Assembly (NCBI GenBank): GCA_964658305.1
Contig: OZ210885.1
Location: 7,564,001-7,628,000, forward strand
DNA length: 64,000 nt
Direction: 5' to 3'
Origin: Leptogorgia sarmentosa
Lineage: Eukaryota
A program made the translations under genes and the position numbers. Shown piece by piece: positions 5,282 through 58,963 of this stretch. The notes under the pieces were generated by a model, which did not search any database, had not been told where the DNA came from, and worked only from the letters and a program-made list of their open reading frames with translations. The first letter of the stretch is position 1. Every line of letters starts with the position of its first letter.

Positions 5282-6156
5282 TTTAGTTGTGAAATTCGAA
5301 GCGAAATAGGATATTGAAAGCGGCAGTTGACTTGTTGCATGGTGTATGGGACAATATCGTTCCCTTGAATATCAGTGTCGGAAAATCGGTAAATTTCTAT
5401 ATCGGCGCGTAACTGGAAATTTTTGAAAGTCATTAATTTGATAATAGACGCAGGCATCATATTTTCTGAGATGCATGGAAATTGATTATTTCTGATTCAA
5501 TGTTCAATACATTTTACCTCATTCATCATTCAATATCCCTATTGTCAGTAATTAAGATATACTTGTCCAGGCTTCCGAAGGAAATAGCTGTGTGCCAGTA
5601 TCACTGAATAAGTTAAATGGTGAACATATCTGGAAATGTTTTCAGCAATTCGCCTGATTAATATAAGAAGCAACTGTATATTTGAAAATGATTTTGTTTC
5701 AACTTTAGTGTAGATTTTCAGTTGTATTTGCTGGTTTACAACTATGGAATTATTATAGAATATTTGTCAATAAAAGTAAAATTACCAATGATGTTTGCAA
5801 TGGTCGTCATATTTACAGCATTATCAGCAAACCATACTGAACTTCAGACGTGGTCATCTCTTAGTCGTATTTTCTAAAATCTTTTCATTTCAGCAGTGTT
5901 TTACAGATACAACATTAGACCATCGATCCTTATAAGTTTGTTTGCAGACTAGGGGACTCTTCATTTGGGAAAATTATCTCTGTTGACAAGAAAATATTTC
6001 GAGTGCCTAATGATTCAGTTATGCTCTTATTGATCACGTTATAACGTCACCACGCTTATCGAGTAAATTGTTTTCGGCCGTGAAAGGCTGTTACATCATA
6101 ACTACAGTGAAACACGCAATTTGATTGGTCAATAATAATTATTTCTTGACGTGAAG

Positions 6157-6273
6157 AGTTTGTCTGTGACTCCACGGAGTTCAAGTGCGCCAACAATCTG
6201 ACGTGTATCTCCAGTGACAAAAAATGTAATGGTGTGGATGACTGTGCTGATAAAAGCGACGAGAGTAATTGCC
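6157..6273 (+). pseudogene. Orphan duplicate of LDL-A exon 5 of the downstream receptor gene
   Basis: 6131-6448 reads identical to 15690-16007; encodes [38 protein letters not shown] with AG/GT sites intact. Confidence 0.9.
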
Positions 6274-6366
6274 GTAAGTAGTTTTGTCATACTAAAAAAT
6301 CACGTGGCCTAATTTGCTGTTGAGAATGAATTTGGAGTAAGGATTGGGATGGGTAGGTTGGACTAT

Positions 6367-7178
6367 TTAGCAATTAGTCGCCGAAGGCGAGGTGATTACA
6401 AGCTCATAGTCACCAAGGCGCGCAGCGCCGAGGTGACTATGAGCTTGTAATCACCGAAGCCTGAGGCGACTAATTGTTTTAGTATAAATTCCCAGGTCAA
6501 AGTGATTTGATTCAAACTGTCTGTTAAGTAGAAATTCAAGTTTTGTTTACTTTGTTTACATAAAATAATTCACGCTCATATCACCACTTTGCTAGTGAAA
6601 AAAGCCAGTTTTGTTGCATAAAAATAACACTAAATAAAATATTTTACTTTGAAAGATTTTTAAACCATATTTTGACGCTTGTTTGGTTTTCTTGGGGATG
6701 CTTTCTTGTTTAATTTTGTCAATTTCCTCCTGCGAAATTCAGCAAACCGAGCGGCCATTTTGAATTTTAATTACGAAAATTGTTATAGTCACCTCCTAGG
6801 AGGTGACTATTTAACAATTAGATTACGAGCTCGAGATTTCTATGAGGTGATAGTTGATGAGGGCGAAGCCCGAATCAACTATCATCTCGTAGAAATCGAG
6901 AGCGAGTAATCTAATTGTTTTAGTAGAATCAGAGATCAAACATGAAAATATTGCAAAAAATAATTTAAAACCGCGTGTCAGAAGACATTTTCTTGAACAA
7001 AAATTCACATATTTTGCTACTCGCTATCTATCGAAGAATAGATAGCGAGTAGAGTAGCCAATCAAATTGCAGCATTTGCAATAGTATACGAGTATGATTC
7101 TACTAAAACAAGAGAGAAATCAATTCTTGTCCAATCAGATTGCAGGAAATGTTATAGTCACTTGAAAATTTATACTAA
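6367..7178 (+). mobile_element. Non-autonomous Crypton-like element family A, copy 1 (contains nested family B copy)
   Basis: Left end TTAGCAATTA, ~110-nt hairpin, then TTTTAGTATAAATT; right end AATTTATACTAA. The minus strand carries MAARFAEFRRRKLT.../[17 protein letters not shown], resembling the CryptonA/DUF3504 N-terminus (frameshifted here). Confidence 0.7.
6811..7106 (+). mobile_element. Crypton-like non-autonomous element family B, copy 1 (296 bp, inserted in family A)
   Basis: TTAACAATTA...hairpin...TTTTAGTAGAATC ... GATTCTACTAA; near-identical to 12869-13164; removal restores the family A internal palindrome gtgactat|aaca. Confidence 0.75.
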
Positions 7179-7405
7179 TCCTCGATAGATAGCGAGTAGC
7201 AAAATATGTGAATTTTCGTTCAAGAAAATGTCTTCTAAGACGCGATTATAAATTAGTTTTTGCAATATTTTCATGTTTGATCTCTAATTCTACTAAAACA
7301 ATTAGATTACTCGCTATCGATTTCTACGAGATGATAGTTGATTCGGGCTTCGCCCTCATCAACTATCACCTCATAGAAATCTCGAGCTCGTAATCTAATT
7401 GTTAA
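7179..7405 (-). mobile_element. Family B copy 2, inverted and truncated
   Basis: Reverse complement of approximately 6811-7035. Confidence 0.75.
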
Positions 7406-7640
7406 TTAGTATACACCCAACCATCGTCTATTACAAATGCTACATTCTAATTGGCTACCAGTCGTTGTCGTTTGCGTGATACACCACGGTTCGCGAAAAA
7501 CCAATGGAAAACAATATGGCTACTGCAGAAAACTCGCGTTTTGCTGAGGTTTCTGAAAAATTTTCTTTATATAAATCATTCTGGGCTTAGAGTGTATACG
7601 AAAACAATTAGACAACTCGGTCTCGTTGTATAATTGTTAA
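7406..7640 (-). mobile_element. Crypton-like non-autonomous element family C
   Basis: Same end design on minus strand (TTAACAATTA...TAATTGTTTTCGTATACAC ... GTGTATACTAA) with a collapsed hairpin; plus strand encodes MATAENSRFAEVSE (Crypton-like N-terminus). Confidence 0.6.
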
Positions 7641-12796: not shown

Positions 12797-12868
12797 CTTT
12801 GAAACACATGTCACAGCAAACAGTAAAATTTAAAAAATGGTGATTATAGTTAATTTACATAATTATAG

Positions 12869-13164
12869 TTAACAATTAGATTACGAGCTCGAGATTTCTA
12901 TGAGGTGATAGTTGATGAGGGCGAAGCCCGAATCAACTATCATCTCGTAGAAATCGAGAGCGAGTAATCTAATTGTTTTTGTAGAATCAGAGATCAAACA
13001 TGAAAGTATTGCAAAAAATAATTTAAAAACGCGTCTCAGAAGACATTTTCTTTAACGAAAATTCACATATTTCGCTACTCGCTATCTATCGAGGAATAGA
13101 TATCGAGTAGAGTAGCCAATCAAATTGCAGCATTTGCAATAGTATACGAGTATGATTCTACTAA
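12869..13164 (+). mobile_element. Family B copy 3 (full length, 296 bp)
   Basis: Same termini TTAACAATTA...GATTCTACTAA as 6811-7106; different flanks, no TSD. Confidence 0.8.
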
Positions 13165-13667
13165 TTTCTGATATATAGCGCGAATGTGGGCTTCCGGTCC
13201 GGTTCAGGAGATGATAAGTCGATCATTCAATCCCATTTTATCTTGTATATACTTTAGTAAGCTCAGGTACCTCACAAATTGTGTTTATTAACGAATTTGA
13301 AACTATTTGAGTCTTGTTTTTAAAACAAGAGGCAAAAGAACGGGATTGCAGGGTACTTTGGGGGTAGTTGCAAGGATAAACAAGTCATTTAAGGAATTTT
13401 GGGAATATCTGAGGAATTCCGGAGCTCACGCTAAGGAATTTTGAAAATTCGTCGTGAGAGCGCTCAAAAATCCTAGAACCGCGCCTGTAATAGTAAACAA
13501 AGAGACGTAGTCGTTGGTACAACACAAGGGAATAATAAGGGCAAGTGAAAAATTATCAAGTCCGATTTGACTCGAGGCGTCACTAAACACAGTCGACAAA
13601 GACAGACTACAAGGCGTGTGTTCACAGGAGTTTTTTTGTTGGGCTTCGAACGGAAGAGCAAAAGGAT

Positions 13668-16600
13668 ATGCCTCGAGGGATGCCTGGCTTAAAGATTCAA
13701 GTACTTTGCTTGTTTGTTATTGTCACTATAACGAACGTAGCGATGGGTAGGCTGAATTTTTATATTAAAAAGCTAGTTATACTGATAATTCTATTCTTCA
13801 TGTCATGAATAACTTTGAATTCTGGCGGTTCGTCAAATAGCCAATTTTAAACGGCTTAAAACGCAGCGCGCTTGTCATTGAGCGATGAGTGATAACTTAT
13901 AACAGCAGATAGCGTATGGCTTGCTTGTTTACGGCTTTGCGTTTACAATCATCAACGTATGTATGGCAGACAATTATAGCGTGTCTGACAATAGCTATAT
14001 AATATTCATGCTTATTTAAATGCGGCTAAACACGCTTTGAAAAGAATAAACAGTAATTAGAAAAATCGACATATTATACATACAAGTACATATGCGTTTT
14101 CAAACATATACTGCGACGCACCGTTTGAAAGTAAGAAATACTTTGGCAGCTATAGCTCTGTAGATATTAGTCCTATTATGCACATGTTTCCCTATATATT
14201 TTTGTTTTGTAGTTTGTGTATACTAGCAACTACTGGTCTGCTACAAGCATCTAGAATTTCTAAATTTTTCACTTTTTCAATTCAGTTCTAATTCTTGAAT
14301 TCCTGCTGCTTAATTGATTAGCCAACGACGTGAACTTATCGTAGCGTGAGTAACGCTGTTTGAAAGATTTGAAAGTGAAAATGATACGAAACAAAATAAC
14401 ATGGTTCAGTACAAGAAATTCCGTTTTGACCAAAAAATTAAAAACGTCTTCATTACACTGAACAACATGTCCACTGTTTGTTTTTTTTTGTTAATTATAC
14501 AAACATATATTGTTTACGTTATCAACAGGTGTAAGGCTAGTTCAGACGTCGAACCGAACTTTTCGCGCGAACAAATTCGCCCTGTAGAAAAAACGGCTTT
14601 ACGGTGCAAATTTTCGCTTATCTCACTGACCCTGCAGTATTCTAACCTCGAACCAATCATTTTCTCTCTCCTTAGGTCGTGAGGACTTTGCATGCTCTTG
14701 GGACGAGTTTGAGTGTACAAAATCTCAGACGTGTACTCTTCTTAAGTGGAAATGCGATGGAGAAGACGATTGCATGGATGGCGAAGATGAAATGGATTGT
14801 AAGTATTATAATTAGAAAGAACGAGTGACGAAAAGTACGAGAGCGCAACTGAAGGAGTCCGAGTGCCCAAGGGAGGTATCGTAATTGCATGTTGATTCAT
14901 TCTAGGTCCACCTACGACGTGCAGACCAGGTTACTTCAGATGCAGAAATGGACGTTGCATTGAAGAATCCTGGGTCTGTGACAAACACAACGATTGCCCT
15001 GACGGAGATGATGAAGCTCCTACTCAAACGTGTAAGTTACATTCACTCTAATGTTGATTAAGGTTTTTGATATTGAGACTCTGTATGCAAGTATTTTGAT
15101 GAATCACATGAAGAGGTGCGTCCTTTTCTTACATTTGTTTACCTTACTTGTCGGGTGGGCAACAATTTTTCGCTCGTTCCCACTGGGATGTATACATAGC
15201 AGTCTTAAATGATGTGATCTCAGGCCAGCCAATCATGTAAGGTGCTCACCCTGGCTATACAACAATGTGTTGAATTTGGTTTAGGTAATATGACAACGTG
15301 CAGACCAAATGACTTTCAATGTCGGAATGGCGACTGTATTCAAGGTTCATATCAATGTGACAGAGAACATGATTGTGAGGATCAGAGTGATGAAGATGGT
15401 TGTCCAGGTATGGTAACTTTCCGGCACTTTCGGAAACAAATTCCCGACGTAACAGACTACGGACATGACGCAGTATTTAGATTGCAGTAACTTTCCTTTT
15501 TTTCTCAAGATTTTTTTGAAAATTTTCCTGCCTTAAAATTTTTTCAGCCAAAAAACGTATACAATTACTTATTGTAACTGACTATCGTTTATTGCTTATT
15601 TATCCAAACATTCGGGCTTCAGCTCCTTGCAATTTCCTCCTCAAACTGGAGTGAACAGTATGTAAACATGACATGATCCATCCATTTGAAATAATAATTA
15701 TTTCTTGACGTGAAGAGTTTGTCTGTGACTCCACGGAGTTCAAGTGCGCCAACAATCTGACGTGTATCTCCAGTGACAAAAAATGTAATGGTGTGGATGA
15801 CTGTGCTGATAAAAGCGACGAGAGTAATTGCCGTAAGTAGTTTTGTCATACTAAAAAATCACGTGGCCTAATTTGCTGTTGAGAATGAATTTGGAGTAAG
15901 GATTGGGATGGGTAGGTTGGACTATTTAGCAATTAGTCGCCGAAGGCGAGGTGATTACAAGCTCATAGTCACCAAGGCGCGCAGCGCCGAGGTGACTATG
16001 AGCTTGTGATCACCGAAGCCTGAGGCGACTAATTGTTTTAGTATGAATTCCCAGGTCAAACTGATTTGATTCAAACTGTCTTTTAATTAGAAACTCAAGT
16101 TTTGTTTACTTTGCTTATAGTTTGTTTACATAAAATAATTCACGCTCATATCACCACTTTGCTAGTGAAAAAAGCCAGTTTGTTGCATAAAAATAACAAT
16201 AAATAAAATATTTTACTTTGAAAGATTTTTAAACCATATTTTGTCGCTTGTTTAACTTTCTTGGGGATGCTTTCTTGTTTAATTTTGTCAATTTCCTCCT
16301 GCGAAACTTCAGCAAACCGAGCGGCCATTTTGAATTTTAATTATGTTATAGTCACTGCCCGGTGACTATAACACCAGAGACAGCAAATTTTAACCAATCA
16401 GATTGCAGGAAATGTTATAGTCACTTGAAAATTTATACTAAAAAATAGTAGACCATGGAAAGGCGAAAGATTAGAGAGAAAGTAAATATGACAATTGACC
16501 TTCGAAGTGCTCAAGTCACGCCAGTGTCAAAACAATGAATCGCTGCAATGCAATGTGAGAAAGATGTGAGAATAAATTTTATTGTATTTACATGCATTGA

Positions 16601-21358: not shown

Positions 21359-21650
21359 CCAAGTAGCTGCCATATTTTCACATAAATATTTCATATTTCA
21401 CATAATTATTTCGTATTGTTCTGATACGAAATACAGCGCTTAGGGTCGGAGTGGACCAGCTACCTGGAACTAGTTCGCCGATTAACTTAAGTAAACCCAT
21501 AGCACAGAGTATAAATCATAGAGAGATGTAACTGGCGTAAATCAATATGAAAAAAACTCGCATTTTCACGTACCCACTTTTTTAAGTTTCAATGCGATCG
21601 TAATTGGATTCGTAATTGGATTTATATTGAGTTTCAATAGGGAAGAGGTT

Positions 21651-21735
21651 GCCTCTTTAGCTCAGGGGTTAGAGCACTGGTCTAATAAAACAGCTAGGAA
21701 ACCGGGGGTGCAGAGTTCAAATCTCTGAAGAGGCT
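21651..21735 (+). tRNA. Intron-containing tRNA-Thr body with anticodon mutated AGT->AAT (intron 21688-21699)
   Basis: Full cloverleaf GCCTCTT/AAGAGGC; 12-nt AAACAGCTAGGA after position 37. Confidence 0.75.
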
Positions 21736-21869
21736 TTGTGAATAAGTGTTCATCCATTTCCTTTTTTGTAATTGGTTACAACGTATGCAGTTAACTCTCG
21801 AAATTGTATGGGAAGTGTGACCTGAAAATTTTTGAAGTGAAATTATTTTATTAAAAACACGTGATAATA

Positions 21870-21932
21870 CGGGAATTGGCCCCGGCCCATGGCGGTGAAA
21901 ACGCCAGATCCTAACCACTAAACCATATGTGA
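21870..21932 (-). pseudogene. tRNA-Glu(TTC) pseudogene
   Basis: TGGCG TT TTC AC CGCCA arm; T arm and 3' end degenerate. Confidence 0.8.
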
Positions 21933-21977
21933 GTGATAACTTGTTCACTATTCCTGTGCTTCAAAGCCAGTTTAATC

Positions 21978-22048
21978 TGCGTTGGCGGGGAATCGAACCC
22001 CGGTCTCCCGCGTGGCAGGCGAGAATTCTACCACTGAACCACCAACGC
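21978..22048 (-). tRNA. tRNA-Gly(GCC)
   Basis: GCGTTGGTGGTTCAGTGGTAGAATTCTCGCCTGCCACGCGGGAGACCGGGGTTCGATTCCCCGCCAACGCA. Confidence 0.95.
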
Positions 22049-22515
22049 AAAGTTGCCCAATTATTTCGTTATAATGTTCATATTCCACAAGATGCCGAAC
22101 ATTTTCACCAAACACCTTCAAATAATAAATCAGAGTAAATTCTTGGAAATTGTTCAAATCACTGCTTCAAATTAAAATTTTCAGAAAAAATTCCCACGCC
22201 GGGAATCAAAACCGGGCTATAAAGGCATACTCTGTTAAAAGCTCCTTTACCCAATAACAAAATCAAGGAATTAAAATCAAGAATTTAAAAAACGATACAA
22301 AACTAATAATAATTATGTACATTATGAATCAATTTGTGGGCATTATTCCTGAATCTTTTGTTGCTGGAATTAATTCTTTATTAATCGTGCCAACACGTAA
22401 AAGAGGTTGATATCGGAAAATATTGACTTTACTTTTTTTCCGTTATGGATGAAATTACGAGTTTTCCCAAAATATGGATAAGAAACATGAACTTTTGAAA
22501 TTCACATATCAATTT

Positions 22516-22561
22516 TCGCTTTGGGTGCCAGAGGTCATGGGTTCGATTCCCGTGCAAGCCC
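22516..22561 (+). pseudogene. tRNA-Pro(TGG) 3' fragment
   Basis: tcgctttgggtgccagaggtcatgggttcgattcccgtgcaagccc. Confidence 0.75.
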
Positions 22562-22638
22562 TTATAATTAACCAAGTAAGACGTTGTATTTTTTGAAAGC
22601 TTTCGTAAATCCTAAGAAAACCCCACCCAAACACGTCA

Positions 22639-22662
22639 CGTCCCTGGTTGGACTCGAACCAA

Positions 22663-22706
<44 letters not shown>

Positions 22707-22712
22707 AGAGAC
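22639..22712 (-). tRNA. tRNA-Asn(GTT)
   Basis: Complete cloverleaf, TTCGG CT GTT AA CCGAA. Confidence 0.95.
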
Positions 22713-22880
22713 TGACTCCATTGAAAACCTTCCGAAAAGAAAACAAAAAATACTGGATATTATTTTTGTTCAAAATTGGATTTTTAGCCAAGGCCATATG
22801 CGACGGCAACAATAAACAGAACTTCAACGGTGACGATGCCCGCAATGGTGATTACAATACTTTCTGGTGTTTGAAACAGA

Positions 22881-22952
22881 TGCCGTGACCAGGATTCTAA
22901 CCTGGGTTATTGCGGCCACAACGCAATGTACTAACCACTATATGATCACGGC
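22881..22952 (-). tRNA. tRNA-His(GTG), T-loop mutated (TTAGA), probably pseudogene
   Basis: TTGCG TT GTG GC CGCAA; compare intact copy 29687-29758. Confidence 0.8.
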
Positions 22953-23063
22953 GACGTCGTTGGAAGATTGGAAAATGTTTTGGAACGGCTGAGATATTAC
23001 ATTAATGCCCTATTTTCCCCCGTCAGTGCAAAGTACAAAAGAAAACATTTTGATATCATCAAT

Positions 23064-23119
23064 GGCTTGCTGGTCGCTTAGGGTGCGAGAGGTCACGGGT
23101 TCGATTCCCGTGCAAGCCC
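23064..23119 (+). pseudogene. tRNA-Pro(AGG) with D arm deleted
   Basis: ggcttgctggtcgcttagggtgcgagaggtcacgggttcgattcccgtgcaagccc. Confidence 0.8.
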
Positions 23120-23235
23120 TAGTTAATTAACCAAGTAAGACGATCTCTTTTTTGAAAGATTCCATAAATCCTTAGAAAATCCCGCGCAAAAAAATCGGTT
23201 ACATTTACCGTCACGACGTCTGAACACACCAAACA

Positions 23236-23259
23236 CGTCCCTGGTTGGACTCGAACCAA

Positions 23260-23303
<44 letters not shown>

Positions 23304-23309
23304 AGAGAC
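23236..23309 (-). tRNA. tRNA-Asn(GTT)
   Basis: Identical body to 22639-22712. Confidence 0.95.
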
Positions 23310-23563
23310 CAACTCAAAAACTTTCCCAAAAGAAATGTAAAAATAACGGATATTACTATTTAATAACAATACACTCGTGAGTTTTCCGAAAACCGCAAAT
23401 AGCACTCGTCCTTCGGACTCCAGCTAGAAGTTGAAAACTTTGCTTTAAAAAAGTTCCTTCGACAACTTCTTTTTATAACTTTTCTCTTTTTTCTCCTACA
23501 CCCAAATCATAACCACCCATAACACCAAAATTTTGCCAAATACTTTCTGGAAATTTGCTCTTC

Positions 23564-23633
23564 CGTAGTCGGCAGGATTTGAACCTGCGCGGGAATTTCC
23601 CAACAGATTTCTAGCCTGTCGCCTTAACCACTC
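23564..23633 (-). pseudogene. tRNA-Ser(AGA), 5' truncated
   Basis: Long variable arm, CT AGA AA loop, first ~12 nt missing. Confidence 0.85.
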
Positions 23634-23811
23634 AAATGAATTCTCATTCTGCGAGTAAAATCAAACAAAATATTTTAGTAATCGTTTTCAAGTATTGGTG
23701 GATAGATTTAACACGAATCGTAGTATATGCATCTCAACTCTTTGGGTCGCATATTTCCCATCAGCCTGCTTTAAAGAATTTGAAAGTTTTCCAGTTTATA
23801 GGTATGGTAAG

Positions 23812-23883
23812 AAGGAGCGGGCGGATTTGAACCACCGACCTCTCGATCTGCAGTCGAATGCTCTACCACTGAGCTACACTCCC
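23812..23883 (-). tRNA. tRNA-Cys(GCA)
   Basis: GGGAGTGTAGCTCAGTGGTAGAGCATTCGACTGCAGATCGAGAGGTCGGTGGTTCAAATCCGCCCGCTCCTT. Confidence 0.9.
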
Positions 23884-24187
23884 TGTGTAGTCGACTAGGT
23901 TAATTACGTACATATGATTTCAAACGCAGCTATAATCAATTCACGGACCTCTGTATTTTCAATTTTACATTCAAATACAAAATCTTTCTTGGCATGTTTC
24001 ATAACCTTAATACAATAAAAAAATGCGACTTCTTTCCGTTGATTTTGTAGATGGAAAACGTGGCATTGAATCTGTCACTTTAAACACTCAGCCCCCACCA
24101 CCGAGAACACAACTTCCTGTCATCGAGTTTTTCCCCAAAACAATTCATGTTTATCTTCGAGGACAAAATTTTAAAGACTTTGCATAA

Positions 24188-24269
24188 CGTAGTCGGCAGG
24201 ATTTGAACCTGCGCGGGAAACTCCCAACAGATTTCTAGTCTGTCGCCTTAACCGCTCGGCCACGACTAC
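24188..24269 (-). tRNA. tRNA-Ser(AGA)
   Basis: Complete 82-nt cloverleaf with variable arm. Confidence 0.95.
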
Positions 24270-24591
24270 GTTGCTACAACCAACCGGTTTCACGTTGTTC
24301 ATTAATGAACATTCACATCCATCTACAACTGACCTACACACTCTCAGCGCTACACTCTGAACAATAGAAACTTTCTATTTTGAGGTCTTTGCAAAACTCA
24401 CTCGTGCAAGTTAATTCCAAATTCCACTCGAAACCATTCTATTAGCAATGCTTATTTATTTCCAAACGTAGTGAAAAGGTGGAAAGATATGAAACTTGAA
24501 CTAAAATATATAGAATGCTACCTACCTGTGCAGGAACATGCCTGAATTTGCCTGAAGCCACATTTTACCTCCAGACAAGGTCGCCAACTTT

Positions 24592-24662
24592 GCGTTGGTG
24601 GTTCAGTGGTAGAATTCTCACCTGCCACCCTTGAGACCGGGGCTTGATTCACAGGAAACGCA
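24592..24662 (+). pseudogene. tRNA-Gly(GCC) pseudogene
   Basis: 5' half intact, anticodon and T stems broken. Confidence 0.8.
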
Positions 24663-24886
24663 GAATGTTTTCATTTTGTTGCATTTCAATTGCAACTCGG
24701 GAAAAAATGTGAGTTCGTAACACAGACATGATCTCGAAATTGTAACTCGCCATGGCCCGGGTTCTATTCATCGGATTCACTTCAAGGTCAAACACTTGTG
24801 GCGATCCTGTCACTCAAAATTTTCTTCGAAATTCAAATTAAAAATATTATTGTTATTTTCACATTCCGAGAAAAGATAAATGTTTC

Positions 24887-24958
24887 TCCCATGTGGTCCA
24901 GTGGTCAGGATCTGGCGCTCTCACCGCCAAGGCCCGGGTTCGATTCCCGGCATAGGAA
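24887..24958 (+). tRNA. tRNA-Glu(CTC)
   Basis: TGGCG CT CTC AC CGCCA; one acceptor mismatch. Confidence 0.9.
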
Positions 24959-25165
24959 TATTACTTGCGAGAGAAGGGGAAAAATGCAATTTGAAAAATT
25001 AGCAAGGCCATTGTTATTATGCTAGCTCTATCCCTCTTACCCATTCATGTTTAAAGTGTAACTATTTCCTAGAACTTATTCTAAATTTTTATTTGAAGGT
25101 GTTTGGTGTAAATGATCGGCATCATGTGGAATATGAACATTATAACGAAATGATTGGATAACTTT

Positions 25166-25236
25166 GCGTTCGTGGTTTAGTGGTAGAATTCTCGCCTGCC
25201 ACGCGGGAGACCGGGGTTCGATTCCCCGCCAACGCA
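25166..25236 (+). tRNA. tRNA-Gly(GCC), two substitutions
   Basis: Inverted paralog of 21978-22048. Confidence 0.85.
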
Positions 25237-25281
25237 GATTAAACTGGCTTTGTAACACGGGAATGGAGAACAAGTTATCAC

Positions 25282-25344
25282 TCCCATGCAGTTTAGTGGT
25301 TAGGATCTGGCGTTTTCACCGCCATGGCCCGGGGCCAATTCCCG
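25282..25344 (+). pseudogene. tRNA-Glu(TTC) pseudogene
   Basis: Same T-arm lesion (ggggccaattcccg) as 21870-21932. Confidence 0.8.
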
Positions 25345-25482
25345 TATTATCGCATGTTTTTAATGAAATACACTCACTCCGAAAATTTTCTTTCAGGTCA
25401 CACTTCTCATACAATCTCGAGAGTTAACTTCATACGTTATAACCAATTACAAAAGAGGGAACGGATGAACACTTATTCACAA

Positions 25483-25567
25483 AGCCTCTTCAGAGATTTG
25501 AACTCTGGACGCCTGGTTTCCTAGCTGTTTTACTAAACCAGTGCTCTAACCCCTGAGCTAAAGAGGC
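25483..25567 (-). tRNA. tRNA-Thr(AGT) with 12-nt intron (25519-25530)
   Basis: CTGGT TT AGT A [AAACAGCTAGGA] A ACCAG; all stems pair. Confidence 0.8.
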
Positions 25568-25771
25568 AACTTCTTCCCCATTGAAACTAAGAATATAAAT
25601 CCAATTACGAAGTTAATTAATTTAAACTTGAATTCCCGTATTATCATGTGTTTTTATGAAATAAACTCACTTGAAAAAATTTGCTTCTGGTCACACTTAT
25701 ACAATCTGAAGAGTTAACTGCATACCTTGTAACCAATCACAAAAAGGAAATGGATGAATTCTTATTCACAC

Positions 25772-25844
25772 AGCCTCATCAGAGATTTGAACTCTGGACC
25801 CCTGGTTTACGAAACAAGTGCTCTAACCCCTAAGCTAATGAGGC
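25772..25844 (-). tRNA. tRNA-Thr(CGT), mismatched, possibly pseudogene
   Basis: CTTGT TT CGT AA ACCAG on a Thr body. Confidence 0.75.
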
Positions 25845-26211
25845 GACCTGCTAAAATCTTCCTAGCATGTTTTTTGCAACGTAGTACTCTTTCAATAGCT
25901 TTTTTATTTCTTCAGTTTTAACTCACTGAACAGCAGCACATGGAATACCATCTGGGCGTTTGTCTTCCACGTTCTTCAAAGTTTACGAAGAAAAAAAAGC
26001 CTCAACAGAGATTTGAACTCTGGACCCCTGGTTTATATTATATTACTTTCGCATCCTGCACTGATGTGATGTTTCAAAATGATAAAAATACGAGTGAAGA
26101 TTATGCGCTTGTTTTCATACTTCGTAAAACGTTACCATTTAGTCTTTGATTGATTTATAATATCGAATATATTTCAAGCTAGAAAGCGGTAGTCTGATAA
26201 CGATACTTTTG

Positions 26212-26284
26212 AGCCTCATCAGAGATTTGAACTCTGGACCCCTGGTTTACAAGACCAGTGCTCTAACCACTGAGCTAATGAGGC
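26212..26284 (-). tRNA. tRNA-Thr(TGT)
   Basis: CTGGT CT TGT AA ACCAG; intronless. Confidence 0.93.
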
Positions 26285-26387
26285 AAATTCTTCCCATTGA
26301 AACTCAGAATATAAATCCAATTACGGCATTAATTGCCGATAGCATCAGAGGCCGGCTGTACGAAATTCGATATCAACTTTATCCACT

Positions 26388-26426
26388 CAGATCAGAAGGT
26401 TAAGTGTTCAATTCACTTCAAGGTCA
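26388..26426 (+). pseudogene. tRNA-Trp 3' half
   Basis: cagatcagaaggttaagtgttcaattcacttcaaggtca. Confidence 0.75.
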
Positions 26427-26522
26427 AGCACTTCTGGCCACGCTGTCTCTCGAAATTTTCTTCGAAATTCAAATTAAAAATATTATCGTTATTTTCACAT
26501 TACGAGCAAAGATAAATGTTTC

Positions 26523-26594
26523 TCCCATGTGGTTCAGTGGTCAGGATCTGGCGCTCTCACCGCCAAGGCCCGGGTTCGATTCCCGGCATGGGAA
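26523..26594 (+). tRNA. tRNA-Glu(CTC)
   Basis: Complete cloverleaf. Confidence 0.93.
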
Positions 26595-26875
26595 TTAATA
26601 CTTGCGAGAGAAGGAAAAAATATGCAATTCTACAAATCAGCACAACCGTTGCTATTATAGTAGCTCTATCCCACTTACCCATTTTTTTGGTGTTTTCTGT
26701 ATTTAAGTCCGAATTGACATGATCTTGCTTTTCACAAAAAAATCCTTTTGCTGATCAGGTTTAAAATGTAACAATTTCCTAGAACTTACTCTGATTAATT
26801 ATTTGAATGTGTTTGGTGAAAATGCTCGGCATCTTGTGGAATATGAACATTATAGCAAAACAATTGGGCAACTTT

Positions 26876-26946
26876 GCGTTGGTGGTTCAGTGGTAGAATT
26901 CTCGCCTGCCACGCGGGAGACCGGGATTCGATTCCCCGCTAACGCA
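26876..26946 (+). tRNA. tRNA-Gly(GCC), G53 mutated
   Basis: Gly body with two substitutions. Confidence 0.8.
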
Positions 26947-27036
26947 GATTATTTTCATTTTGATGCATTTCAATTTCAACTCCAACACGAAAAACAAACT
27001 GGCTTCGTAACACAGGAATAGTCAACAAGTTATCAC

Positions 27037-27108
27037 TCCCATGTGGTCTAGTGGTTAGGATCTGGCGTTTTCACCGCCATGGCCCGGGTTCGATTCCCGG
27101 CGTGGGAA
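27037..27108 (+). tRNA. tRNA-Glu(TTC)
   Basis: Complete cloverleaf followed by a T-run terminator. Confidence 0.95.
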
Positions 27109-27194
27109 TTTTTTCTCAAAATTTCAATTTGAAGCAGCTTGTGTTCACATTTTCAAACTGGTTCTCTGAAACCAAACCATTTTAACACCGCTAC

Positions 27195-27249
27195 GACCTT
27201 GTGGCGCAATTGGTAGCGCGTCTGACTCCAGATCAGAAGGTTAAGTGTT
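27195..27249 (+). pseudogene. tRNA-Trp(CCA), 3' truncated
   Basis: TCTGA CT CCA GA TCAGA; ends in the T loop. Confidence 0.85.
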
Positions 27250-27291
27250 GAAAGTATTAATTAAGAGAGATGATATTGTCAGCGCGTCACA

Positions 27292-27373
27292 GGTAGCGTG
27301 GCCGAGTGGTCTAAGGCGCTGGTTTAAGGCACCAGTCATTTCGTTGGCGTGGGTTCGAATCCCACCGCTGCCA
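27292..27373 (+). tRNA. tRNA-Leu(AAG)
   Basis: CTGGT TT AAG GC ACCAG, long variable arm. Confidence 0.93.
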
Positions 27374-27429
27374 AACTTTCGTTGTTCATCGACGTTGTGG
27401 TTGATTGAGCTGATATAAATTTCAAAACG

Positions 27430-27795
27430 CAGGGGCGCCGGAAGCTACCTGAAGCGGCGGGGGCAGCCAATTAAAAAGGGCACCTTTTTCTAGACATTAA
27501 ATGTTCCTGTGCGGTAATGTTCGGTAAGATTTTCCTATATGGATACTGGACCACACTGCAGAAGATGTTTTTACATAAAATAAGTTCGATCCGATTTTTT
27601 TTTACGTATTACTTTACATCGAATTATAATTAAGAAACACAATTACATCTGTTAACGCTAATAATGCATGATTAATGAAATATCCTTCATATCCTCCATG
27701 TGGAAAAGGGCAACGAGTTGCCCCCGCACTGCCCCCGCACCGTAAGGGAAACGGGGGCAGCTGCCCCCGCTGCCCCCGTGCTTCCGGCGCCCCTG
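27430..27795. mobile_element. hAT-type MITE (366 bp)
   Basis: TIR CAGGGGCGCCGGAAGC / GCTTCCGGCGCCCCTG; perfect 8-bp TSD TCAAAACG. Confidence 0.92.
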
Positions 27796-27843
27796 TCAAA
27801 ACGTGATGCATCTTATCCAAATTTTGTGAAAATTCGCAATTTA

Positions 27844-28217
27844 GACCCCTATTACACTTATATTACTTACACCGGATTACTTTTCGTTCCGAATCAATTT
27901 TGACACGGATGAAAGAAATGGCAGCGATTACACTACGCCGCTCCGCTGTGGAAGACGTCTTCGTATCGTATAATGTTGGATATTTAGGGCATACAAACAC
28001 GACATTATTTGATGCACCGGAGCCTACCGGATTAGTGATTACACTTGGCTTTTCCCGGTACGGCACATACCGGATTACTTTTCGTATCACGAACGAAGCG
28101 GAGTGATTTTTGCTCCGTGTCACGTACCGGATTACAGTGGCGTAGTGTAATCAACAGCCCAATCCGGTATAAAAATCGCTCCGCTCCGATGCAATCCGGT
28201 ATAGTGTAATAGGGGCC
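27844..28217. mobile_element. PIF/Harbinger-type MITE
   Basis: TIR GACCCCTATTACAC / GTGTAATAGGGGCC, TTA on both sides, internal taccggatt repeats. Confidence 0.8.
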
Positions 28218-28475
28218 TTATCCAGCCAAAAAGAATAAAAATGATATTTTCTGATATCACCTTCTTTTGGTCGAAACTAGTTGATAGCCACAAACTATCT
28301 GATCATGGACAGAATTTTTGCATTGTATTCTAAATTCTTGATCATTTTTCACTCTTTCGGGAGTGACTTCTATAACAGAGTATCGTTTTTGTAACCAAAT
28401 AACTGAGATTTCCAAAACAACATTGTAAGAGACATTTGCTACGTTATCCAACGTTTCAAATGCCTAGTTCAATAC

Positions 28476-28547
28476 AGGTTCTGCCGAGACTTGAACTCGG
28501 ACCACTGGATTCAAAGTCCAAAGTGCTAACCATTACCCCTCTGAACC
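28476..28547 (-). tRNA. tRNA-Gln(TTG), degenerate
   Basis: TTGGA CT TTG AA TCCAG; 5' acceptor and D region mutated. Confidence 0.75.
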
Positions 28548-28688
28548 TTAACACGTTAAAGTCAAAGATCCAATTTGTTTAACGTTTCTTCCTTTCTTTG
28601 ATACAAAGATATCACGTTTGACAAAGGTCCGTGAATTGATTATAGCTGCGTTTGATATGTGCGTATAATTAACCCAGTAGTCAACACA

Positions 28689-28760
28689 AGGAGTGTAGCT
28701 CAGTGGTGCTCTATTCCACTGCAGATCGAGAAGTCGGTGGATCAAATCCGCCCACTCCTA
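28689..28760 (+). pseudogene. tRNA-Cys(GCA) pseudogene
   Basis: Inverted paralog of 23812-23883 with D-stem and T-loop damage. Confidence 0.8.
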
Positions 28761-28981
28761 CTTATCATACCTATAAACTGGAAAACTTCCAAATTCTTTA
28801 AAGCAGGCTGATGGGAAATATGCGACCCAAAGAGTTGAGATGCATATACTACGATTCGTGTTAAATCTATCCACCAATTAAATAAACCACTATCCTATCC
28901 ACCACTAAAATATTTTCTTGGATTTTACTGGAAGAATGAAAATTTATTCATTTCGAAGTGGAAGCGATGTTTAATGCCAAT

Positions 28982-29063
28982 GTGGTCGTCGTCGAGTGGT
29001 TAAGGCGACAGACTAGAAATCTGTTGGGAAATTCCCGCGCAGGTTCAAATCCTGCCGACTACG
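28982..29063 (+). tRNA. tRNA-Ser(AGA)
   Basis: Full length, few 5' substitutions. Confidence 0.85.
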
Positions 29064-29313
29064 GAAGAGCAAATTTCCAGAATGTATTTGGCAAAATTTT
29101 GGTGTTATGGGTGGTTATGATTTGGGTGTAGGAGAAAAAAAAAAGTTATAAAAAGAAGTTGTCGAAGAAACTTTTTTAAAACAAAGTGTTCAACTTCTAA
29201 CTGGAGTCCGAAGGACGAGTGCTATTTGCGGTTTTCGGAAAACTCACGAATGTATGTTATTAAATAGTAATATCCATTATTTTTACATTTCTTTTGGGAA
29301 AGTTTTTGAGTTG

Positions 29314-29319
29314 GTTTCT

Positions 29320-29363
<44 letters not shown>

Positions 29364-29387
29364 TTGGTTCGAGTCCAACCTGGGACG
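29314..29387 (+). tRNA. tRNA-Asn(GTT)
   Basis: Two acceptor-stem substitutions. Confidence 0.85.
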
Positions 29388-29503
29388 TGTTTGGTGTGTT
29401 CAGACGTCGTGACGGTAAATGTAACCGAATTTTTTGCGCGAGGTTTTCTAAGGACTTACGAAAGCTTTCAAAAAACAGAACGTCTTACTTGGTTAATTAA
29501 CTA

Positions 29504-29575
29504 GGGCTTGCACGGGAATCGAACCCGTGACCTCTCGCACCCAAAGCGAGAATCATACCACTAGACCAGCAAGCC
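29504..29575 (-). tRNA. tRNA-Pro(TGG)
   Basis: CTCGC TT TGG GT GCGAG, complete. Confidence 0.95.
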
Positions 29576-29686
29576 ATTGATTGTATCAAAATGTTTTCTA
29601 ATGTACTTTGTACTGACGGGGGAAAATGGGGCATTAATGTAATATCTCAGCCGTTCCAAAACACTTTCCAATCTTCCAACGACGTC

Positions 29687-29758
29687 GCCGTGATCGTATA
29701 GTGGTTAGTACATTGCGTTGTGGCCGCAATAACCCAGGTTCGAATCCTGGTCACGGCA
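29687..29758 (+). tRNA. tRNA-His(GTG)
   Basis: Complete cloverleaf. Confidence 0.95.
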
Positions 29759-29925
29759 TCTGTTTCAAACACCAAAAAGTATTGTAATCACCATTGCGGG
29801 CATCGTCACCGTTGAAGTTCTGTTTATTGTTGCCGTCGCATATGGCCTTGGCTAAAAATCAGATTTTGAACAAAAATAATATCCATTATTTTTTGTTTCT
29901 TTTCGGAAGGTTTTCAATGGAGTCG

Positions 29926-30002
29926 GTCTCTGTGGCGCAATCGGTTAGTGCGTTGTTAGGCTGTTAACCGAAAGGTTGTTGGTTCGGGTCCAACCAGGGC
30001 CG
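29926..30002 (+). pseudogene. tRNA-Asn(GTT) with 3-nt insertion
   Basis: gcgttgttaggctgttaaccgaa. Confidence 0.8.
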
Positions 30003-30268
30003 TGACGTGAGCTAATGAGGCAAATTCTTCCCATTGAAACTCAGAATATAAATCCAATTACGGCATTAATTGCCGATAGAATCAGAGGCCAGTTGTACGA
30101 AATTCGGATATCAACTTTATCCACTTGATAGTGATTTTTTCAACAGTTGTAAAAATAGACAAAATGTTGTAAAACTGAACATATGGGCGTGGCAATCAAT
30201 AAATGAAGCAGCTTGTGTTTATATTCTTAAACTCGTTCTCTGAAACCAAACCATTTTACCAGCGCTAC

Positions 30269-30341
30269 GACCTTGTGGCGCAATTGGTAGCGCGTCTGAC
30301 TCCAGATCAGAAGGTTAAGTGTTCAATTCACTTCAAGGTCA
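30269..30341 (+). tRNA. tRNA-Trp(CCA)
   Basis: Complete; in left arm of palindrome 30171-30664. Confidence 0.93.
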
Positions 30342-30493
30342 AGCACTTCTGGCCACGCTGTCTCTCGAAAATTTCTGCGAAATTCAAATTAAAAATATTA
30401 TCGTTATTATCACATTCCGAGAAAAGATAAATGTTTCTAAATAAATTTGAATTGCGCAGAAAATTTTCGAGAGACAGCGTGGCCAGACGTGCT

Positions 30494-30566
30494 TGACCTT
30501 GAAGTGAATTGAACACTTAACCTTCTGGTCTGGAGTCAGACGCGCTACCAATTGCGCCACAAGGTC
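30494..30566 (-). tRNA. tRNA-Trp(CCA), one anticodon-stem substitution
   Basis: Right arm of the palindrome. Confidence 0.88.
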
Positions 30567-30866
30567 GTAGCGCTGTTAAAATGGTTTGGTTTCAGAGAAC
30601 GAGTTTGAGAATATGAACACAAGCTGCTTCATTTATTGATTGCCACGCCCATATGTGCAGTTTTATAATCTTAAAGTAGAACTGAGAGTACCGGTTACTA
30701 GCTTGAATTATATTCGATACTATAAATCAATCAAAGACTGTAAATGGTAACGTTTTACAAAGAATTTAAACCAGTGCATAATCTTATCTCTTATTTTTAC
30801 CATTTTGAAACATCACATCAGTGCAGGATGGGAAAGTAATATAATTCTACAGCAAGCTTTTGAGTT

Positions 30867-30939
30867 GCCTCATTAGCTCAGGGGTTAGAGCACTGGTCTT
30901 GTAAACCAGGGGTCCAGAGTTCAAATCTCTGATGAGGCT
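30867..30939 (+). tRNA. tRNA-Thr(TGT)
   Basis: Complete, intronless. Confidence 0.93.
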
Positions 30940-31356
30940 TTGTTCTCTTCGAAAACTTTGAAGAACGTGGAAGACAATCGCCCGGATTGTATTCTATGTG
31001 CTGTATGTGCTGTTGAACTCTTCCGTGAATTAAAACTGATGGAATACAGAAGCTATTCGAAGAGTACTATGTTGGAAAAAAATGCTATGAAGATTTTAGC
31101 ATGTGACCAGGGGTCCAGAGTTCAATTCTCTGATCAGACTGTGGCAATAAGTATCCATCGTGAATAAGAATTCATCCATTTACTTTTTGTGATTGGTTAC
31201 AAGGTATGCAATCAACTCTCCAGTTTGTATAAGTGTCACTTGAAACAAAATTTTTCAAGTGAGTTTATTTCATGAAAACACGTGATAATACGGGAAATTC
31301 AGTTTAATTAACTTCGTAATTGGATTTATGTTCTGAGTTTCAACAGGGAAGAAGTT

Positions 31357-31388
31357 GCCTCTTTAGCTCAGGGGTTAGTAAAACAGCA
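31357..31388 (+). pseudogene. Remnant of intron-containing tRNA-Thr(AGT)
   Basis: gcctctttagctcaggggt-tagtaaaacagc: internal deletion that keeps AGT and the start of the intron. Confidence 0.7.
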
Positions 31389-31431
31389 GAGTTTGAGAAT
31401 GTAAACACAAGCTGCTTCAAATAAGAATAAA

Positions 31432-31503
31432 TTCCCACGCCGGGAATGGAACCCGGGCCATGGCGGTTAAAACGCCAGATCCTAACCACTAGACCACATG
31501 GGA
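31432..31503 (-). tRNA. tRNA-Glu body with TTA (ochre-reading) anticodon; B-box G57->C
   Basis: TGGCG TT TTA AC CGCCA; otherwise matches 27037-27108. Confidence 0.8.
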
Positions 31504-31592
31504 ATGATAACTTGTTGACTATTCCTGTGTTACAAAGCCAATTTTTTCTCGTGTTGCAGTTGAAATTGAAATGCAAAAAAATGAGAATAATC

Positions 31593-31664
31593 TGCGTTAT
31601 AGCGGGGAATCGAACCGGGTCTCCCGCATGGCAGGCAAGAATTCTACCACTGAACCACCAACGC
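31593..31664 (-). pseudogene. tRNA-Gly(GCC), degenerate
   Basis: Gly body with several substitutions and a 1-nt insertion. Confidence 0.8.
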
Positions 31665-31944
31665 AAAGTTTGGCCAATGCTTTCGTTTTGTTCTTATTCC
31701 ACAAGATGCCAAACATTTTCACCAAACACCTTTAAATAATAAATCAGAGTAAGTTCTAGGAAATTGTTTCACTTTAAACATGATCAGCAAAGTAAATATT
31801 TTTGTGGAAAAGCAAGATCATGTCAACAAAGACTTAAATACAGAAAACACCAAAAGAATGGGTAAGAGGGATAGAGTTAGTATAATAGCAACAGTCTTGC
31901 TAATTTCTCGAATTGCATATTTTTTCCTTCTCTCGGAAGTATTA

Positions 31945-32016
31945 TTCCATTGCGGGGAATCGAACCCGGGCCTTGGCGGTGAGAGCGCCAGATCCTGACC
32001 ACTGGGCCTCATTGGA
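31945..32016 (-). pseudogene. tRNA-Glu(CTC), degenerate
   Basis: Anticodon arm intact, acceptor stem damaged. Confidence 0.8.
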
Positions 32017-32112
32017 GAAACATTTATCTTTTCTCTAAATGTGAAAATAACGATAATATTTTTAATTTGAAATTGGAAGAAAATTTCGATAGCCAGCGTG
32101 GCCAGAAGTGCT

Positions 32113-32185
32113 TGACCTTGAAGTGAATTGAACACTTAACCTTCTGATCTGGAGTCAGACGCGCTACCAATTGCGCCACAAGGTC
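32113..32185 (-). tRNA. tRNA-Trp(CCA)
   Basis: Complete cloverleaf. Confidence 0.93.
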
Positions 32186-32271
32186 GTAGCGCTGTTAAAA
32201 TGGTTTAGTTTCAGAGAACGAGTTTGAGAATGTGAACACAAGCTGCTTCAAATTGAAATTATCAGAAAAAA

Positions 32272-32343
32272 TTCCCACGGCGGCAATCGAACCCGGGCCA
32301 TGGCGGTGAAAACGCCAGATCCTAACCACTAGACCACATGGGA
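32272..32343 (-). tRNA. tRNA-Glu(TTC), two 3' substitutions
   Basis: Glu body; C61 of the B box altered. Confidence 0.8.
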
Positions 32344-32468
32344 GTGATAACTTGTTCACTATTCCTGAGTTACAAACCCAGTTTGTTTCTCGTGTTGCAT
32401 TTGTGGGTTAAATTATGAACCAATGGTGAATCGTTAAGAAACGAATACAGTCATGAACAACGAATAAA

Positions 32469-32550
32469 TGGCAGCGGTGGGATTCGAACCCACGTCATCG
32501 AAATGACTGGTGCCTAAAACCAGCGCCTTAGACCACTCGGCCACGCTACC
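32469..32550 (-). tRNA. tRNA-Leu(TAG)
   Basis: CTGGT TT TAG GC ACCAG, long variable arm. Confidence 0.93.
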
Positions 32551-34283
32551 TGTGACGTGCAGAGAATATAATTTCTTTTTAGTAAACATCCACATCGTTT
32601 GAAGAGATTCCTTTCGCTATCGACGAAACGTAGAAACGTGAGACAATGGGGAAATATTGTCGTGCTAAGGTTCTGTGGTGTAATGGCTGCAGGTTCTCTT
32701 AGCTGGTAAATAACAAAAAATATATATCCCTACCTAAATTTTTATATCCCTAACTTGAAATTACAAATATTTGAAGATACTTTTGCCTGTTGTATTTACC
32801 TTATTTTAGTAGTGATTCCAGTCATTCACTACAGGGGAACCAAACACAAATTCGTTTTCATTTATTTTGTCGCTGAAATCACCGTAGATGCCATCCCAGG
32901 GCTTTGCAACTTCAAAAATTTTCTGGGGAAGAATACCCCCATAGCGTGTCACCTGCACAAGCACAAGCAGCTTAAAACACTACATAGGCATGTCAGCAAG
33001 CAAATTTAAAGAATGATATGGAAACCACATTAAGTCTTTTAACCACAAAAGTTACTCAAATGAAACAAAACTTTCGAAATATATTTGGGGACTAAAAGAT
33101 AATAAGATAGATTTCGACATTAATACGTGTTCAATAATTGAACAGTGTATTTCGTATACGGGATATATATTTCACCACTTCTAAAAACCTGGGAAGATTT
33201 TTTCATGATACGAAGATAGACTAATTCAGTAATGTAATATTGGTCAGTTTTTCAAAAGCTTCGGAAATATATCTTTCACGTGATATAATGATACGAAGTC
33301 GGACTATAATTACGTATCGTAATATTATACATTGTAGGTAAAACAGTATTATGTCAATGGACATAAAAACAAAACGCAAATGTGTCGATAGATAATCAGC
33401 AAGTAACAAGGACCGAAGTTCCTGCATCTGTGAGCTGTCAAACATGGCACTATATTCATCTAGCTAAGCCAAAGATAATGCAAAGCGACAGGGATTATAA
33501 ATAAGAGAAGGAAAATGAAATAAAGTTGGATCTAATTAACATTTTTCGGGACACTGTATGGACTGACAACTGCATACATGTATACAAACTGCTAGTAAAT
33601 ACACATTGTCTGAATGAACATGCCAAAAATTTCTGTAACGAACATGCCACCTTTGCGTCTCCTTTTTGACACAACCAACCGAAGCGCACTCCGAGTCTCC
33701 TTCTGATCTCTATGTGTGTCTGCTGTCTACCATTTCCGCACTCACGCGCCGGTCGTGAAAGAGTGCTACCCGGCAACTAGGTGAGCGAGCGCATGAAAAA
33801 AGCAGTGAAGAGAAAGTTCGCCGGTAATGTCGTCTCCCTGGAAATAAAACAACCACGTTGGTTTCAACCAGTGATGTTTGTTCAAATCCCGAGCGCTAAA
33901 TTTTTCGGATTAAGATTATCACTAAAAAACGTTTTAAAAAATAATGACAATAAGATTGTTATAAAACTACTTATTTGTTGTATCATCTGTGAAGTGATGT
34001 ATAGTTTTAGTTGATTGAGGCATTCCATCAAAGAACAAAGCTAGTGATAAAAACTTTGACAACGTGAAATCACGCATGCGCTATAAACTGAAAATTGAAT
34101 ATTACCTTCCGGGCGGCCACGTCCCGTAATCTTAAGCTCGCTTTTCTCTGTTAAAATATGGCTCGGAATAGCAAGTTAAATTGCCTCCGGGCGAAGTTGA
34201 AGAATCGAAGAATCGAAGAGTTGAAGAATCGAAGAGTTGAAGAATCGAAGAGTCAAAGAAGTGCTGTGAATTCCGTTCGTGTT

Positions 34284-58912: not shown

Positions 58913-58963
<51 letters not shown>

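Follow-up and report, generated by a model that had tools for sequence, protein, structure and literature searches.

What kind of mobile element opens with a long hairpin, closes with the complement of the bases just inside that hairpin, and enters DNA without duplicating its target? The question is raised by a 64-kb window of Leptogorgia sarmentosa (contig OZ210885.1, positions 7,564,001–7,628,000), meaning here the whole stretch of DNA analysed, whose LDL-receptor-like exons, tRNA clusters and LINE are those of animal DNA. The original prediction held that the two element ends are joined in a circle, that the folded junction of this circle is the recombination site, and that each insertion regenerates a target and so produces integron-like arrays.

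The surroundings of the elements are themselves rich in repeats. Dense tRNA gene clustering at 21600–32600, 58700–59000 and 63200–63900 (32 ARAGORN calls, one of them, at 31431–31504, with a stop anticodon) was assembled from inverted and direct duplications. The LINE open reading frame (43278–46268, minus strand) is uninterrupted over 996 aa with endonuclease and reverse transcriptase, and adjoins a 9-bp tandem array at ~42.0–43.0 kb. A pair of repeats at 38739–39420 and 59863–60584 is 94–99% identical and contains 40-nt internal subrepeats.

Seven elements in four families share one end design. A1 (6367–7178, plus strand; 812 nt including the nested B1), assigned below to the non-autonomous CryptonA elements, begins with a terminal hairpin (6367–6478, plus strand) whose computed fold runs through 14 bp, a GA/GA loop, 4 bp, a GA/GAA loop, 24 bp, 5 bp and a GCA triloop. 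The first 7 nt of this hairpin are the junction spacer considered below, and the hairpin is followed by an inner arm (6479–6490, plus strand) that is the reverse complement of the far end at 7167–7178. A2 (15926–16441, plus strand) is a family A copy without B, located in an intron of an LDL-receptor-like gene. B1 (6811–7106, plus strand), a 296-nt non-autonomous element nested in A1, has its hairpin and inner arm at 6811–6931 (plus strand; hairpin 6811–6919, arm 6920–6931 complementary to 7095–7106) and an internal palindrome characteristic of family B at 7017–7052 (15 bp, 6-nt centre). B2 (7179–7405, minus strand) is a truncated family B copy whose internal palindrome is interrupted by the right end of A1, and B3 (12869–13164, plus strand) is a full copy. 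C (7406–7640, minus strand; 235 nt) has the common end design with a short 38-nt hairpin, and D (51565–51854, plus strand) has the same design but is older and more decayed. Every one of these elements starts with TTA(A/G)CAATTA, followed by the hairpin and then a 12-nt inner arm complementary to the far end; the reverse-complementary pairs quoted in the original prediction are all present where it had placed them.

The hairpins are far more stable than shuffled sequence (z −15.6 for A and −12.6 for B, with 0 of 200 shuffles equally stable). Those of A and B are unrelated in sequence and yet nearly identical in build, each with 14 bp, a GA/GA loop, 4 bp, a second GA loop, 24 bp, a short stem and a GNA triloop, which is GAA in B1. 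A perfect 318-nt duplication (6131–6448 = 15690–16007) contains an LDL-receptor-type exon together with the first arm of A, so A1 is a chimera, with its left flank derived from the A2 locus and its right end inside B2; this could have come about either through rearrangement via two A copies or as an effect of assembly.

Boundaries were examined by seeking empty alleles in assembled contigs of other samples, with four runs per comparison. A2 is skipped exactly in three of the four runs (joint 15925 to 16442, 516 nt, ends TT..AA, no shared letters); the empty allele extends at least 255 nt on each side in two runs at single-copy depth, and the three runs belong to one study. A2 is a polymorphic insertion. 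B3 has an empty site in three of four runs, all from one study (joint 12868 to 13165), where two letters are ambiguous and the flank is a low-copy repeat, and B1 is skipped in two of four (joint 6810 to 7107) with a short side of only 23 nt; the uninterrupted B1 insertion site is also present in A2. As had been claimed, B1 sits inside A1, at a hairpin, and its insertion point there reads GACTAT^AACAAG without duplication. Dozens of contigs depart from the alignment into unrelated sequence at 7106 (36/30/22 contigs), at 6808, and at 7406 (17–29 per run). The summed depth of B is hundreds-fold above that of its flanks, which is not a copy number and indicates dispersal and abundance only. The window elements are real and mobile; their ends are exact (TT…AA), and the target is not duplicated. 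This last point, already made in the original prediction, is borne out by the exact skips in other samples and by the finding of target duplications of 4 bp or more in 0 of 45 reconstructed sites among the matches listed.

Which enzyme moves them is suggested by broken coding sequence. A2 carries at 16218–16328 (minus strand) the first exon of a CryptonA tyrosine recombinase, in frame and followed by a GT donor-like site, that matches the N-terminus of the DUF3504/integrase protein P0045 at 19 of 34 residues (pairwise E 7e-10; tblastn E 1.7e-5); its A1 counterpart (6648–6758, minus strand) is a frameshifted remnant. Recombinase remnants lie inside five further loci among the matches listed (L057, L071, L108, L112 and L145), two of which are complete elements with both ends (1415 and 1439 nt). 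Within L071 there is a Phage_integrase match, and the L071 protein has 76 longer homologs among 346 candidates, mostly annotated as DUF3504 plus Phage_integrase; those with names come from stony corals, under source names that are KIAA1958-like. The three proteins tested, P0002, P0012 and P0045, exceed the Pfam cut-offs for both DUF3504 and Phage_integrase. R-K-H-R-H-Y motifs are intact in P0002, P0005 and P0012, and R-H-R-Y motifs, which like the former we take to be the catalytic residues of this type of protein, are found in P0002, P0005, P0012, P0014 and P0026, all known as proteins alone and without genomic context. In a Foldseek search the model of P0045 (pLDDT 75) matched QRICH1 first and then Cre, with an integron integrase at rank 48. 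Between the ends themselves we saw broken remnants and no intact recombinase.

The direction of the gene is always from the CCAAT end towards the hairpin end, so that the strand with the hairpin first is the complement of the mRNA. The CCAAT box, located for example at 7131–7135 and 7058–7062 within the last 50 nt of the elements, falls, among the matches listed, within the final 80 nt in 37 of 43 elements and at 48–49 nt from the far end in 31 of 43. Gene-less families have retained it, and it is possibly the recombinase promoter or a host-factor site required in cis.

Families B, C and D lack any coding remnant, and only their shared ends link them to CryptonA; the CryptonA placement draws on Pfam, source names and the QRICH1 fold match. 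As the consulted sections of PMC3212892 describe them, CryptonA are defined by DUF3504 recombinases. The elements examined here combine a DUF3504-type recombinase remnant with a lack of terminal inverted repeats, long direct repeats and target site duplication, and those in the window are very likely non-autonomous CryptonA, either gene-less or gene-broken. A different superfamily has comparable ends: in the accessible text of PMC3627910 and PMC4067079, Helitron2 and Helentron elements, which move by HUH rolling-circle replication, have an asymmetric terminal inverted repeat of 8–15 bp with a hairpin and do not modify their target, so that the present elements might be Helentron derivatives in which the recombinase pieces are captured fragments. 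The recombinase remnants are nevertheless held in constant orientation inside the ends, where this DUF3504 gene is the sole gene of mobile type, and no Rep/helicase family is listed for 80 of the 96 scanned open reading frames of at least 130 aa, the other 16 coming from L046, a viral locus, and from L107, a duplicate. Helentrons, moreover, use a T-rich/TT target and palindromes of 5–10 bp, as opposed to a two-armed palindrome with a 6-bp spacer and a hairpin of 38–120 nt. We therefore regard a Helentron origin as highly improbable and largely refuted.

Several other candidates fell away. DIRS elements have an internal complementary region that resembles the present end design; no reverse transcriptase lies within the element ends. 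Replitrons, with direct repeats and an RG target according to the part of PMC10288648 consulted, do not fit. A frameshifted tyrosine-recombinase fragment elsewhere in the window (55693–56501, minus strand) has a Phage_integrase match just under the cut-off (E 1e-5), with Atlas features at 0.94 to phage-integrase clusters. As a partner enzyme this fragment was rejected, having no DUF3504 domain and matching none of the 76 CryptonA proteins.

Returning to the non-autonomous CryptonA assignment, a metagenome scan for both end motifs yielded at least 121 loci, and the design is common to almost all of them across many families. Salmon Crypton-N1_SSa and Eulor5-6 may, we presume, share it. Rows dropped from the scan were L046, L107 (a duplicate of L106) and duplicate flanks, including that of A2, and stems below 9 bp were left out of the hairpin, strand, stacking and full-motif counts. 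In a viral collection a loose pattern matched 45 times, always without a far end and with a stem of no more than 2 bp; the strict pattern matched once (L046), at a locus that has a short stem and no far end, was taken as chance and was dropped.

Joining the right end to the left end lengthens the hairpin stem, as had been proposed. The register differs from the one in the original prediction, which placed TT opposite TT at the crossover: in the six full copies that register gives only 2–5 of 12 extension pairs, and 10–12 of 12 form when TT is extruded as a bulge. The spacer measures 7 nt at the joined ends and 5 nt at the inner inverted site, and this difference accounts for the 2-nt TT bulge in the joined fold, where the arm AATTAA faces only TTTT. 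The 7/5 geometry recurs in 126 of the 127 copies listed; because the search pattern fixed both end motifs in advance, both this count and the lack of reciprocal products at these loci are ascertained and not independent. Freedom from that ascertainment applies to the geometry only in window families A and C, and to the missing reciprocal product only in contig loose ends. Among 43 elements in the matches listed, variable positions of the inner arm and far end match at 5.7 of 6 within an element and 2.8 of 6 between elements, a contrast that is partly circular because far ends were located by that complementarity. Independent support for the right ends comes from positions 13 and 14, beyond the seed, which match in 28 and 29 of 43 among the matches listed, from the CCAAT box present in 37 of the same 43, and from the target motif that follows the end. 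The covariation could reflect protein binding instead of base pairing.

The flanks define a target. Across ~125 relatives among the matches listed it is a palindrome, MTAW^N6-WTAK, with the cut at the left border of its 6-bp spacer: (A/C)TA(A/T) precedes the element and (A/T)TA(G/T) lies six bases after it in the flank consensus of these matches. TA occupies −3/−2 in 111 of 129 and +8/+9 in 30 of 45 of the flanks listed, and among spacers of 0–12 nt in the same matches only 6 nt stands out. Leaving out the window and 11 nested loci, the recount among the matches listed gives 91/108 and 22/33 (p 2e-15). The first spacer position is biased to T (19 of 33, p 0.001), and positions 2–6 have no clear match to the element's own spacer, again among the matches listed. 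In each family the arms of the target correspond to the type, G or T, of the element's own arm (p 0.002; p 0.0025; among the matches listed). The preference is loose, since the full motif is present in only 8 of 43 of the listed sites and the TA..TA core in 23 of 43. Tyrosine recombinases leave 5′ overhangs, and a top-strand cut at the left spacer edge is consistent with that polarity. The left flank MTAW resembles the element's last MTAA imperfectly and, judging by its position, probably acts as a binding arm mirrored across the 6-bp spacer. The original prediction had read the likeness of left flanks to right ends as a trace of arrays; the flanks it quoted are correct, it omitted that of D (GCAGTGA), which does not fit, and the likeness is due to target preference. 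Two inverted arms around a 6–8 bp spacer are the layout of tyrosine-recombinase sites in the sections of PMC3212892 consulted, where the F and S groups of Cryptons have a 4–6 bp direct repeat at both termini as the crossover, a feature those sections do not report for CryptonA.

The palindrome of family B at 7017–7052 is a perfect target site and is reused by other elements. As an ideal copy of the target of its own element class, it could conceivably play the role of a decoy or a resolution site.

The loop motifs of the hairpins lie almost wholly on the strand that carries the cut. In 126 distinct hairpins among the matches listed, GA/GA 2×2 loops number 139 on the hairpin-first (top) strand and 1 on the other, and facing mismatches are A–G in 623 cases versus C–T in 66. 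Counted by group in the matches listed, GA/GA loops favour the top strand in 21 groups versus 1 bottom among 28, a group number inflated by shortened copies that fall out as singletons, and all seven multi-member groups are top; GNA triloops, likewise by group among these matches, are biased 16 versus 2, all closed by C–G (C-GNA-G). The bias of G–T versus A–C is weak (222 vs 182, p 0.05, among the matches listed). Both sheared GA tandems and C-GNA-G loops form stable structures in DNA, and their confinement to one strand speaks for folding of the cut strand as DNA.

The ends might alternatively recombine as duplex DNA. Excision by two strand exchanges would then release a double-stranded circle, which would recombine with a duplex target even though the spacers do not match, as happens in Tn916; the inner arm would offer the recombinase one more place to bind, and the hairpin would have a regulatory role or form a cruciform. 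This is the published model for Cryptons in the accessible parts of PMC3212892 and of a September 2026 review (PMC13565253), which assumes a double-stranded circle and states that Crypton transposition lacks experimental demonstration, and circles of Starships have been detected in reads according to the text available for bioRxiv 10.64898/2026.09.21.753150. The predicted recombinase fold is Cre-like, and precise empty sites fit either route. Recombination between duplexes nonetheless leaves unexplained the GA/GA and C-GNA-G motifs on one strand, the stem geometry that A and B share from unrelated sequence, and a junction spacer of 7 nt facing a 6-nt target with an inner site of 5. Nor does it explain why the loose ends of contigs lack a reciprocal product: contigs departing at the B right end have no TTAACAA consensus beyond it (agreement 0.45–0.6), and thus give no sign of the product expected from a two-strand exchange. 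We consider this route possible but doubtful. Circles themselves leave an ambiguous record here. No joint of the B right end to the B left end is among the 15 of 150 and 15 of 24 joints listed, which is neutral evidence because contigs drop rare forms, and one contig joins a B-like right end of another subfamily to a B left end, where tandem pair and circle are indistinguishable.

Spacers of 7 and 5 nt, loops on one strand, a cut at one edge and the lack of spacer homology fit a folded single-strand site and one exchange. We judge it probable, with some reserve, that CryptonA elements move via a tyrosine recombinase acting on folded single-stranded joined ends, exchanging one strand with the target MTAW^N6-WTAK. 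The hairpin-first strand would become single-stranded during replication, or be extruded, allowing the left end to fold. The recombinase would then attach the right end to the left end within this strand alone, and in the resulting circle the right end would pair with the inner arm to form a two-armed site with an unpaired 7/5 spacer. This folded junction would undergo a single strand exchange with a duplex N6 target, after which replication would resolve the junction so that TTAACAA is kept at the left while the whole target spacer lands at the right. We infer every enzymatic step. The proposal that the folded circle junction is the recombination site thus holds up as a plausible model, from the two-armed fold completed by the joined ends, the unpaired spacer and the strand-specific features found in silico, in the bulged register instead of the TT–TT one.

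A strand-biased copy-out, as in bacterial SE elements, would also circularise one strand, with the hairpin forming transiently and the circle made duplex to become the integrating form. It would account for the single product type and for the high copy number. We think it improbable: it gives no role to the family-specific complementarity of 12–14 nt between inner arm and far end, and SEs need four genes where CryptonA encodes one.

Under the folded-strand exchange that we favour, each insertion would regenerate a target at its right junction, and this, together with the 6-bp-spaced palindromes inside elements, would permit occasional stacking and nesting in either orientation. The original prediction drew from this a picture of elements stacked head-to-tail like cassettes. 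Within the window only C and B2 are so arranged, the B2 left end meeting the C right end at 7405/7406 as it had stated, and the right end of A1 lies inside the internal palindrome of B2. The check it proposed, for head-to-tail enrichment, gave a divided answer: 5 of 125 left flanks among the matches listed are another element's right end, one of them being C/B2 in the window, against 0.8–3.2 expected (p 0.0015 to 0.21), an excess over the target-motif null that appears only under the more lenient of two nulls. L116 is head-to-tail on a weaker criterion, beyond these five. Tail-to-tail pairs exactly 6 nt apart were found at L083 and L110 among the 43 right flanks in the matches listed, and tail-to-tail contigs with a joint from 7107 to 7406 occur in three of four runs, with letters shown for one. 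Reversed insertion into a left junction is seen at L057 and L130. In the former, a near full-length decayed CryptonA with an intron (L057, 3414–4828) has entered the left junction of another element, with its 7-nt spacer, which indicates that the left junction can also serve as a target. Hairpins or internal palindromes received insertions at L147 and L158; a C element at the B internal palindrome (joint 7034 to 7404) was found in three of four runs, and a left end at 12901, inside the B hairpin, in two of four. Roughly nine in ten insertions among the matches listed lie outside other elements, a share in which short metagenome contigs may under-represent nests. Regeneration of a target therefore survives as our reading of the right junction, without the polarity of integron arrays: elements stack only now and then, in either orientation and also inside one another, which is not integron-like.

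If correct, the proposed mechanism would be the first single-strand tyrosine-recombinase pathway of eukaryotes within the literature searched, and such pathways would not be confined to bacteria and phages; it would also make the CryptonA enzyme a scar-free integrase with a loose target. Should the folded-strand model hold, it would show what the domain now domesticated in ZMYM, QRICH1 and KCTD1 did ancestrally. The exact ends, the cut strand and position, the target motif and the bulge together define the substrates that a direct test requires. Coral-associated data contain these elements in abundance, and the rules for ends and target would aid repeat annotation even if the mechanism is wrong.

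Relative to the CryptonA described by Kojima and Jurka in 2011 (PMC3212892), whose consulted sections give a single DUF3504-type recombinase, no terminal inverted repeats, no target duplication and abundant non-autonomous derivatives, the present elements agree in each of these respects and add defined ends, a hairpin, an inner arm and a palindromic target. CryptonA, including non-autonomous derivatives (a named example is CryptonA-1N1_OL), are known in cnidarians from the same text, in which no terminal repeats were found for animal Cryptons, and a 2026 CryptonA paper (PMC13465315), in its accessible part, could not define boundaries. We found no published description of these ends or this target for Cryptons in the sources consulted; Repbase, figures, subscription papers and bioRxiv supplements may contain hairpin ends.

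The likeness to Helitron2 and Helentron-HINE elements, as drawn in the available text of PMC3627910 and PMC4067079, extends to an asymmetric terminal inverted repeat beside a terminal hairpin, a T start and no target duplication, while enzyme, target rule and hairpin size differ. The inverted repeat here is 12–14 bp and lies 38–120 nt from the end, compared with 8–15 bp at 20–30 nt in Helentrons (38–60 in HINEs).

On balance, and by a narrow measure, we read animal CryptonA as the eukaryotic equivalent of the recombination seen in CTX phage and integrons, with a self-encoded recombinase and a degenerate 6-bp-spacer target, finished by replication. Integron attC sites, in the portion of PMC2727003 consulted, have an unpaired central spacer and extrahelical bases that select the strand; the resemblance lies in a folded single-strand site, strand-specific unpaired bases and a structure kept while sequence varies. 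Unlike integrons as these sources present them, the elements have no attI platform, promoter, polar array, cargo genes or IntI, and the fold of their enzyme is not closest to IntI. CTX phage is the closest worked example within the literature consulted, having paired inverted sites in one strand with spacers unlike the 6-bp target: according to the accessible text of PMC3089051, attP(+) forms by the folding of two inverted sites, separated by ~90 bp and with centres of 12 and 7 nt, and XerCD recombines it with dif by one strand-pair exchange involving the 6-nt dif centre. As described there, CTX uses host XerCD, a single fixed dif site and a packaged single-stranded genome, whereas the CryptonA elements would use a self-encoded enzyme and a degenerate target; and, unlike in CTX, one of the two sites here would exist only after the ends have joined.
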